Assembly (NCBI RefSeq): GCF_003334815.1 | Contig: NZ_QOWO01000133.1 | DNA from: Escherichia coli | Lineage (GTDB): Bacteria > Pseudomonadota > Gammaproteobacteria > Enterobacterales > Enterobacteriaceae | DNA: 374 bases | Direction: 5' to 3' (one strand) | Shown here: positions 1 through 374 of the stretch, in pieces | Numbering within the stretch: position 1 is the stretch's first letter | Layout of the letters: the number at the start of each line of letters is the position of its first letter | The notes under the pieces: generated by a model | Databases searched by the model: none | Told to the model about the DNA's origin: nothing | The model's input: only the letters and a program-made list of their open reading frames with translations | Program-made: the position numbers and the translations under genes

Positions 1-348
1 GATTTTCTGTATGCCGAGGCGTATGTGTACGCGCTGGCGCAAAAAATGATGCCGGAATATCAGGGAGGCTTCTGGCACTTCATCCGCCTGCCGGACGGTG
101 GCGGTTACATGATGCCGGATGGCGACCGTTTCCACATGGTGAACGGTGCAAACTGGTTTGACCGTACCGTGAGTGCTGATGCCGCAGGCATCATTCTGAC
201 TTCCCTTGTGATTAACCGCCAGTTGTGGCTGTACCACGACAGCGGGGATGCAGGACTGACCCAGCTTTACCGGATGCGCGATGCGCAGTTGTGGCGTCAC
301 ATCGAATTTCACCCCGAATGCAACGCGATTTACGCGGCACTGGACTGA
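1..348 (+). CDS. ArdB/KlcA-family antirestriction protein, 5'-partial (N-terminus lies upstream of the window)
   Basis: Frame +1 has no stop from nt 1 to TGA at 346-348; the ORF track's 25..348 sits in this frame and the 8 codons before it (DFLYAEAY) are also open. Translation carries motifs I recall from this family: Y-x-GG-x-W (58-75), DGGGYMMPD (94-120, cf. KlcA 'DGGFYMAPD'), VNG (139-147), SADAAGI (172-192, cf. KlcA 'SADAAGI'), and C-terminal Y-R-x-RD...HPEC-x-AIY-x-A-x-D ending at the stop (cf. KlcA '...HPEAAAIYRAID', YfjX-like '...HPE..AI..ID'). The match is from memory, not a search. The GTG at 25 is a track artifact, not the start, because family homology continues upstream of it and homologs have ~35-45 more N-terminal residues. 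Confidence 0.8.
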   Translation, partial: DFLYAEAYVYALAQKMMPEYQGGFWHFIRLPDGGGYMMPDGDRFHMVNGANWFDRTVSADAAGIILTSLVINRQLWLYHDSGDAGLTQLYRMRDAQLWRHIEFHPECNAIYAALD

Positions 349-359
349 TTAACGGACGG

Positions 360-374
360 GGCGGCAATGCCGCC
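360..374 (+). other. GC-rich stem-loop 12 nt after the stop (possible terminator stem or intercistronic structure), truncated by window edge
   Basis: Seen directly: ggcggc (360-365), loop aat (366-368), gccgcc (369-374) gives a perfect 6-bp all-G/C stem. G359 and G358 could extend it if nt 375-376 are CC. No downstream T-tract is visible because the window ends, so the function is unassigned. Confidence 0.3.

Follow-up and report, generated by a model that had tools for sequence, protein, structure and literature searches.

The exact tandem duplication of GATGCGC found towards the 3' end of a plasmid-borne antirestriction gene is very probably a by-product of coding that behaves as a weak hotspot of slipped-strand frameshifts, for the most part in one direction, with products that persist mainly where the gene is dispensable. 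The window, i.e., the whole stretch of 374 bases that was analysed, carries two units of this repeat. Alleles with one and three units and otherwise identical flanks exist in nature, are rare, and sit in several plasmid backgrounds.

The antirestriction gene and its repeat

The window comprises the 3' part of a 426-nt gene, encoding a protein of 141 aa, and 26 nt downstream of it. The coding sequence (CDS) is read in frame 1 according to the list of open reading frames and ends with the TGA at positions 346-348 (Table 1). The window is 100% identical to the gene for the 'antirestriction protein' WP_001198928.1 in the IncI1 plasmid pM217_I1, where the annotation of the surrounding leading region lists a DNA methylase, DUF1380 genes, ssb, psiB, psiA, and ardA. 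The annotation of R64 likewise places the gene in a leading region, among ssb, psiB, psiA, ardA, and methylase genes. The leading region is the context for genes that act on entry into a new host (PMC11541004).

Table 1. Features of the window discussed in the text.
Feature	Position	Strand	Basis and remarks
Antirestriction gene, 3' part, ArdB/KlcA family	1..348	+	Frame 1, 116 codons (residues 27-141 and stop)
First GATGCGC unit	273..279	+	Direct reading; stretch missing in one-unit alleles (alignments)
Second GATGCGC unit	280..286	+	Direct reading; three-unit allele (L005) has one extra copy
Quasi-palindrome TGCGC-GAT-GCGCA	275..287	.	DNA fold; 5-bp stem, 3-nt loop, -5.3 kcal/mol
-1-frame reading SCGVTSNFTPNATRFTRHWTD, new C-terminus after unit loss	287..352	+	Translation of edited sequences; stop TAA 350-352

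Membership of the ArdB/KlcA family is indicated by domain and structure matches. Pfam PF03230 (Antirestrict) matches residues 45-141 (E=1.9e-26), and the PDB matches are KlcA (2kmg, E=1.8e-18) and ArdB (2wj9, E=3e-7), with both alignments reaching the C-terminal Asp. The protein shares 94% identity with the syntenic protein of R64 (comparison made with NC_005014), with the last 50 residues being identical, and judging from this synteny the window CDS probably corresponds to R64 yfeB. ArdB from R64 inhibits type I restriction in vivo (PMC10149784). In KlcA, the C-terminal helices 3-5 constitute the core three-helix bundle, and E133 and D142 form part of the few patches of its surface that are conserved (PMC2836571). 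These two residues align with E132 and D141 of the window protein. ArdB of pKM101 and R64 and KlcA of the IncP plasmids (PMC2836571, PMC10149784) are relatives of the host gene by family, and not precedents for the repeat. Homologous DNA was found in approximately 4,900 places in 3,508 of the 5,426 complete E. coli genomes, nearly all of them plasmid-borne.

A plasmid of E. coli O55:H7 USDA5905 (NZ_CP039842.1, 57754-58155) carries a more diverged homologue (86% identity) of 402 nt versus 426 nt, which is shorter by an in-frame length of 24 nt and is still annotated as an antirestriction protein. The gene was also found on short contigs of Streptomyces assemblies (L146, L150) and of MAGs assigned to Oscillospiraceae, Oscillibacter, and Collinsella (L147, L148, L149). 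These occurrences in Streptomyces and in MAGs of Gram-positive gut bacteria are most likely the result of contamination or mis-binning, and not of a real host range. In pM217_I1 itself, ssb is annotated as a 75-nt fragment that abuts another partial gene (L001, 7774-9138), an indication that the leading region of this plasmid was rearranged or suffered a deletion.

The exact GATGCGC tandem that the original prediction had placed inside the CDS was confirmed by direct reading. The ends of the repeat are sharp on both flanks (272 g versus 279 c, and 287 a versus 280 g), and the codons that cover it, CGG ATG CGC GAT GCG CAG, encode R-M-R-D-A-Q (residues 117-122). Removal of one unit converts residues 120-141 into SCGVTSNFTPNATRFTRHWTD and gives a product of 140 aa, while addition of one unit alters the sequence from residue 122 on. 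The prediction that about the last 20 codons would be frameshifted is borne out, with translation of the edited sequences giving 22 codons.

When the window was shuffled 5,000 times with its dinucleotides preserved, an exact tandem of two 7-nt units arose in 2.4% of the shuffles, and an exact tandem of two units of at least 6 nt in 11.5%. Tandem Repeats Finder, with a minimum score of 30, reported nothing in the window, where two 7-nt copies fall below the threshold. The repeat is real, yet near the chance level and statistically unremarkable by itself. Its 14 bases would be a by-product of encoding (R)-M-R-D-A-(Q) as xxG ATG CGC GAT GCG Cxx, with no designed element. The RMRDAQ peptide is confined to the IncI/IncF clade, as is the DNA repeat, and more distant homologues have YMLRDAQ, FQMRDAQ, and similar peptides in this place. 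The quasi-palindrome listed in Table 1 arises from the duplication, and its fold has a z of -1.8 in a 20-nt context and of -0.1 in a 36-nt context. It was considered as a stabiliser of a slipped intermediate and set aside, given that it is no better than shuffles in the 36-nt context; a contribution of this kind might be possible, and would be weak.

Copy-number alleles and their plasmid backgrounds

Comparison of homologous loci for one-unit and three-unit variants, which had been proposed together with the original prediction, gave a positive answer, as exact alleles of both kinds exist. DNA queries were made of the 50-nt flanks with one, two, or three units between them. In the complete E. 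coli genomes, the one-unit query gave two ungapped matches, namely the pO157 plasmid of strain 10671, from cattle in the UK, and pMB41_1 of O157:H7 MB41-1, from cattle in Louisiana (USA). Both are annotated as 'antirestriction protein, frameshifted', and in the alignment both lack precisely one unit. Among at least 5,000 plasmids of PLSDB, the one-unit allele was again retrieved from these two records. The three-unit allele was found neither in the complete E. coli genomes nor among the at least 5,000 PLSDB plasmids.

Proteins were searched by exact-sequence look-ups in a collection of 15 billion proteins. Exact look-ups were needed because clusters at 90% identity bury the variants inside the wild-type cluster, and indeed a homology search with the frameshifted product missed the allele for this reason. 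The one-unit product of the pO157 background (ERC85103.1, STI62382.1; P0123) was found on 89 contigs; 2 contigs carry the three-unit product of the pO157 type (P0124). The DNA was verified for ten one-unit loci and for the three-unit locus, and a check by regular expression and alignment showed one, two, and three units with identical flanks, so that the alleles differ by exactly one unit. The one-unit variants occur in finished PacBio-era plasmids, in NCBI drafts, and in Logan assemblies.

The records of these alleles call for some care. The one-unit open reading frame (L003, 2701-3119) encodes 140 aa and ends at a TAA located 4 nt past the normal stop. RefSeq labels the allele as 'frameshifted', and the GenBank records ERC85103.1 and STI62382.1 carry the name of an intact 'antirestriction family protein', so that in some records a 140-aa frameshifted ArdB passes for an intact one. 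The one-unit locus from an NCTC genome (UGCM01000001.1; L010) has many scattered 1-nt indels versus other pO157 plasmids, with neighbouring genes split, and these indels probably stem from errors in the long-read consensus; its 7-nt deletion is nonetheless also present in clean assemblies. A literature search for a frameshift of the pO157 antirestriction gene turned up nothing specific.

The one-unit loci of canonical pO157 (L003, L004, and L007-L010) differ by 0-2 SNPs per 6 kb among themselves and versus a two-unit pO157. With only 0-2 flanking SNPs per 6 kb, descent and recurrence are inseparable within canonical pO157, and the 89 contigs may represent one or a few clonal O157 lineages. The one-unit allele is also present in L006 and 10 similar places, which belong to a pO157 variant with ssb/DUF905/parB downstream. 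In the nearest complete relatives of L006, the O157:H7 strains ECP19-598 and G5295 (99.7%), the span is 7 nt longer, and therefore contains two units. A one-unit product was furthermore found in an allele of the pECSF1/SE15 type (P0136/L022, from SRR22432872; single contig), which has 8 substitutions relative to the window allele in the 114 bases surrounding the site. The backbone of the three-unit allele is non-O157 and F-like, and its nearest complete plasmids are only 98.4% identical. The pECSF1-type one-unit allele comes from one automatically assembled SRA run and the three-unit allele from two.

The change thus recurs in independent lineages, in two forms of pO157 and the pECSF1 type for the one-unit allele, and in an F-like plasmid for the three-unit allele. 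Because the variants sit in several distinct backgrounds, their sequences would imply one duplication and three or more deletions; the minimum number of deletions falls to two if the allele passed from one pO157 form to the other by recombination.

Frequency, controls, and competing explanations

In spite of these events, the two-unit state prevails. Variants account for 2 of approximately 4,335 places in the complete E. coli genomes (about 0.05%), with more than 99.9% having two units, and for 2 of approximately 350 pO157-type copies in complete genomes, of which approximately 348 keep an intact gene. An unbiased DNA scan that allowed for a variable gap between the flanks found no variant among 120 metagenome contigs, nor among 7 contigs from a set with one genome per species, all of them having the two-unit spacing. 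In the IncI1-type background of the window, the two-unit product is present on at least 1,000 contigs of the protein collection, and neither a one-unit nor a three-unit product was found there. The same holds for the one-unit and three-unit products of the pCUVM53, p1405a, pOkiPb, and MS196 backgrounds. The lack of variants in the IncI1-type and these four other backgrounds means that the rate per lineage is low, and that the site is a hotspot only in a relative sense.

The repeat itself is not conserved as such. Of the 120 metagenome alleles, 95 have the exact repeat, 22 have one that is interrupted by point substitutions, and 3 were unreadable by the script; most of the interrupting substitutions are synonymous (CGC to CGT or GCG to GCA). 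Among 9 sampled E. coli alleles, 2 likewise have a broken repeat. Given that about 18% of natural alleles are broken by point substitutions, nearly all of them synonymous, the repeat is not maintained as a repeat.

For comparison with other sites of the same gene, ten control frameshift products in the pO157 background were looked up in the same protein collection. Nine of them were absent (gain or loss of one base at CCC338, TTT344, and TTT385, loss of one base at TTT407, and gain or loss of one unit of the ACCGT duplication). The only one present was the product of the A6 to A7 change, on 3 contigs, and in this background both products of the 7-mer are present. The look-ups require the exact full-length product, so that controls that truncate early (ACCGT and A6) could escape gene callers, and the comparison of 7-mer and control counts is confounded by clonality, by gene calling, and by the absence of the products in other abundant backgrounds. 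Within these limits, the absence of the controls may favour a relative hotspot, jointly with the A6 run.

Both of the repetitive controls are observations in their own right. ACCGT ACCGT (two units of 5 nt, window 161-170) is a second exact out-of-frame tandem of the CDS. The A6 homopolymer (window 41-46) is another slippage site of the gene; its A7 product of 79 aa (P0149, UGK56941.1, 'hypothetical protein') falls in a cluster with 7 related truncated members.

It is unlikely that there is no hotspot at all, and that one neutral deletion in clonal O157, together with a few artefacts of sequencing or assembly, has been observed at a site that mutates no more readily than others in the gene. 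The near identity of the canonical pO157 loci is what this explanation expects, as is the origin of the pECSF1-type and three-unit alleles from only one or two automatically assembled runs, and frameshifts at other positions do occur sporadically among the cluster representatives (P0007, P0036, P0044, P0060, P0062, and P0064). Nonetheless, it fits poorly with the same precise change by one unit, lost or gained, in four backgrounds that differ in sequence or structure, and with the absence of nine of the ten matched control products. Artefacts are also difficult to reconcile with the presence of the variants in three kinds of assembly, and the assembly k-mer exceeds the 14 nt of the repeat, which would make assembly collapse improbable.

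A weak slippage hotspot in a coding by-product accounts for these observations as follows. Because two exact 7-nt copies lie side by side, replication slippage would occasionally remove or add one unit, by slipped-strand mispairing that loops out 7 nt or by a 7-nt loop on the nascent strand. In E. coli, MutS-dependent repair handles loops of approximately 1-4 nt, and deals poorly with loops beyond that size. The 7-nt products of slippage could thereby escape MutS-dependent correction. Either frameshift would replace the C-terminal part of the ArdB/KlcA fold, including the conserved E132 and D141. Because both frameshifts destroy the region of the core bundle and of the surface patches, the antirestriction function is very likely, or almost certainly, lost in the frameshifted alleles. 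The loss of a unit is effectively irreversible by slippage since no repeat remains, and only the change from three units to two could revert.

The fate of the frameshifted alleles would then depend on the plasmid. On conjugative plasmids, they are presumably removed by selection. On pO157, the gene would be dispensable, and under relaxed selection the frameshifted allele could persist and spread clonally. pO157 is typed as non-mobilizable, and its ssb-psiB/leading region is remodelled. The concentration of the variants on this plasmid fits relaxed selection on a gene that would act only at entry into a new host.

The same concentration could be read as adaptive, with slippage supplying the mutation and selection favouring the loss of ArdB on pO157, possibly because ArdB is costly or interferes with the type I restriction-modification of the host. 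The one-unit allele reaches 89 contigs in the pO157 background and is carried by two structural lineages of pO157, and the products are absent from the far commoner conjugative backgrounds that were looked up, save for the one contig of the pECSF1 type. This reading is nevertheless quite improbable, since approximately 2 variants in 350 complete pO157-type plasmids indicate that there was no sweep, and the counts are explained just as well by the neutral hitch-hiking of an allele in a clonal pathogen. It is very improbable that the duplication constitutes a recurrent, selected 'off' route for ArdB, taken once transfer stops or once ArdB hampers the type I restriction-modification of the host. 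If true, the slippage alleles of ardB would be adaptive, would mark plasmid domestication in O157:H7 and its relatives in a phylogenetically informative way, and would still not represent reversible phase variation.

The original prediction had described the site as a weak candidate for a mutational on/off hotspot, and of this description the slippage-prone site and the frameshift of the conserved C-terminus upon loss or gain of a unit hold, while the on/off switching is unsupported. A phase-variable (contingency) switch, in which reversible gain and loss of 7 nt turns antirestriction on and off, would be consistent with a unit that is inside the CDS and not a multiple of 3 in length and with the natural occurrence of one-, two-, and three-unit alleles, but it is largely refuted, and extremely improbable, given that there are only two copies, that the one-unit state has no repeat to expand from, that two units are found in more than 99.9% of the complete-genome copies and in 120 of 120 metagenome contigs, that nearly all of the substitutions breaking the repeat in about 18% of alleles are synonymous, and that the plasmid on which the variants are concentrated is non-mobilizable and offers no evident role for the gene.

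Known systems and neighbouring features

A close parallel to a slippage hotspot of this kind is lacI, where the three CTGG units, gaining or losing 4 nt, are reportedly the classic case of a slipped-strand frameshift hotspot in E. coli, going back to Farabaugh et al. in 1978. As in hotspots of the lacI type, the ardB repeat is exact, head-to-tail, and inside a CDS, its mutants have gained or lost one unit, and the deletion and duplication products are both seen and both frameshifting. In contrast to lacI with its three CTGG units, only two copies are present, and the unit is longer (7 nt). Slippage cannot return the deletion product to two units, and the ardB repeat is known from population genomics and not from a mutation assay.

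The phase-variable contingency loci of Haemophilus and Neisseria contain tetra-, penta-, and heptanucleotide tracts (PMC7015867). The ardB repeat shares with them an out-of-frame unit inside a CDS, the copy number of which sets the reading frame. It differs in that its tract has 2 units and not many, shows no frequent copy-number polymorphism, is not preserved against synonymous change, and changes one way and not reversibly. The frameshifts of ardB also resemble the pseudogenisation of transfer genes and leading-region genes on non-conjugative virulence plasmids, in that they concentrate on the non-mobilizable pO157, but here approximately 348 of the 350 complete pO157 copies keep an intact ardB.

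The ardB repeat is a new example of a well-known type of mutational site, and, as a textbook case of slippage in a single plasmid gene, it carries little weight for basic biology. The 7-nt indel could serve as a marker of certain pO157 sublineages, and it illustrates the decay of an anti-defence gene on plasmids that no longer conjugate. The annotation of 140-aa frameshifted products as intact proteins, described above, is a caveat for users of these records.

Two other features of the window were observed. A perfect 8-bp GC-rich hairpin, GGGGCGGC-AAT-GCCGCCCC, starts 10 nt past the stop codon and spans window 358-374 and 2 nt beyond (L001, 6358-6376). The hairpin GGGGCGGC-AAT-GCCGCCCC is not followed by a T-run and is therefore unlike a classical intrinsic terminator; 3' of it, TGTAAAGGAGACGAGAACATG constitutes the ribosome-binding site and the start of the next DUF1380 gene.

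The second feature is a match to a type I-E CRISPR spacer of E. coli GmM066 (NZ_CM183652.1; L002, 1501-1533), which is identical to window 76-107. The array adjoins cas2e/cas1e, and in its transcribed orientation the protospacer is on the minus strand of the window. The triplet that adjoins the protospacer is ATG (window 108-110, 'cat'), and the 33rd matching base is the G of the PAM, shared with the end of the CRISPR repeat. ATG is an interference-proficient type I-E PAM. From the exact match of the spacer, it follows that a chromosomal CRISPR array has a spacer directed at this plasmid antirestriction gene.
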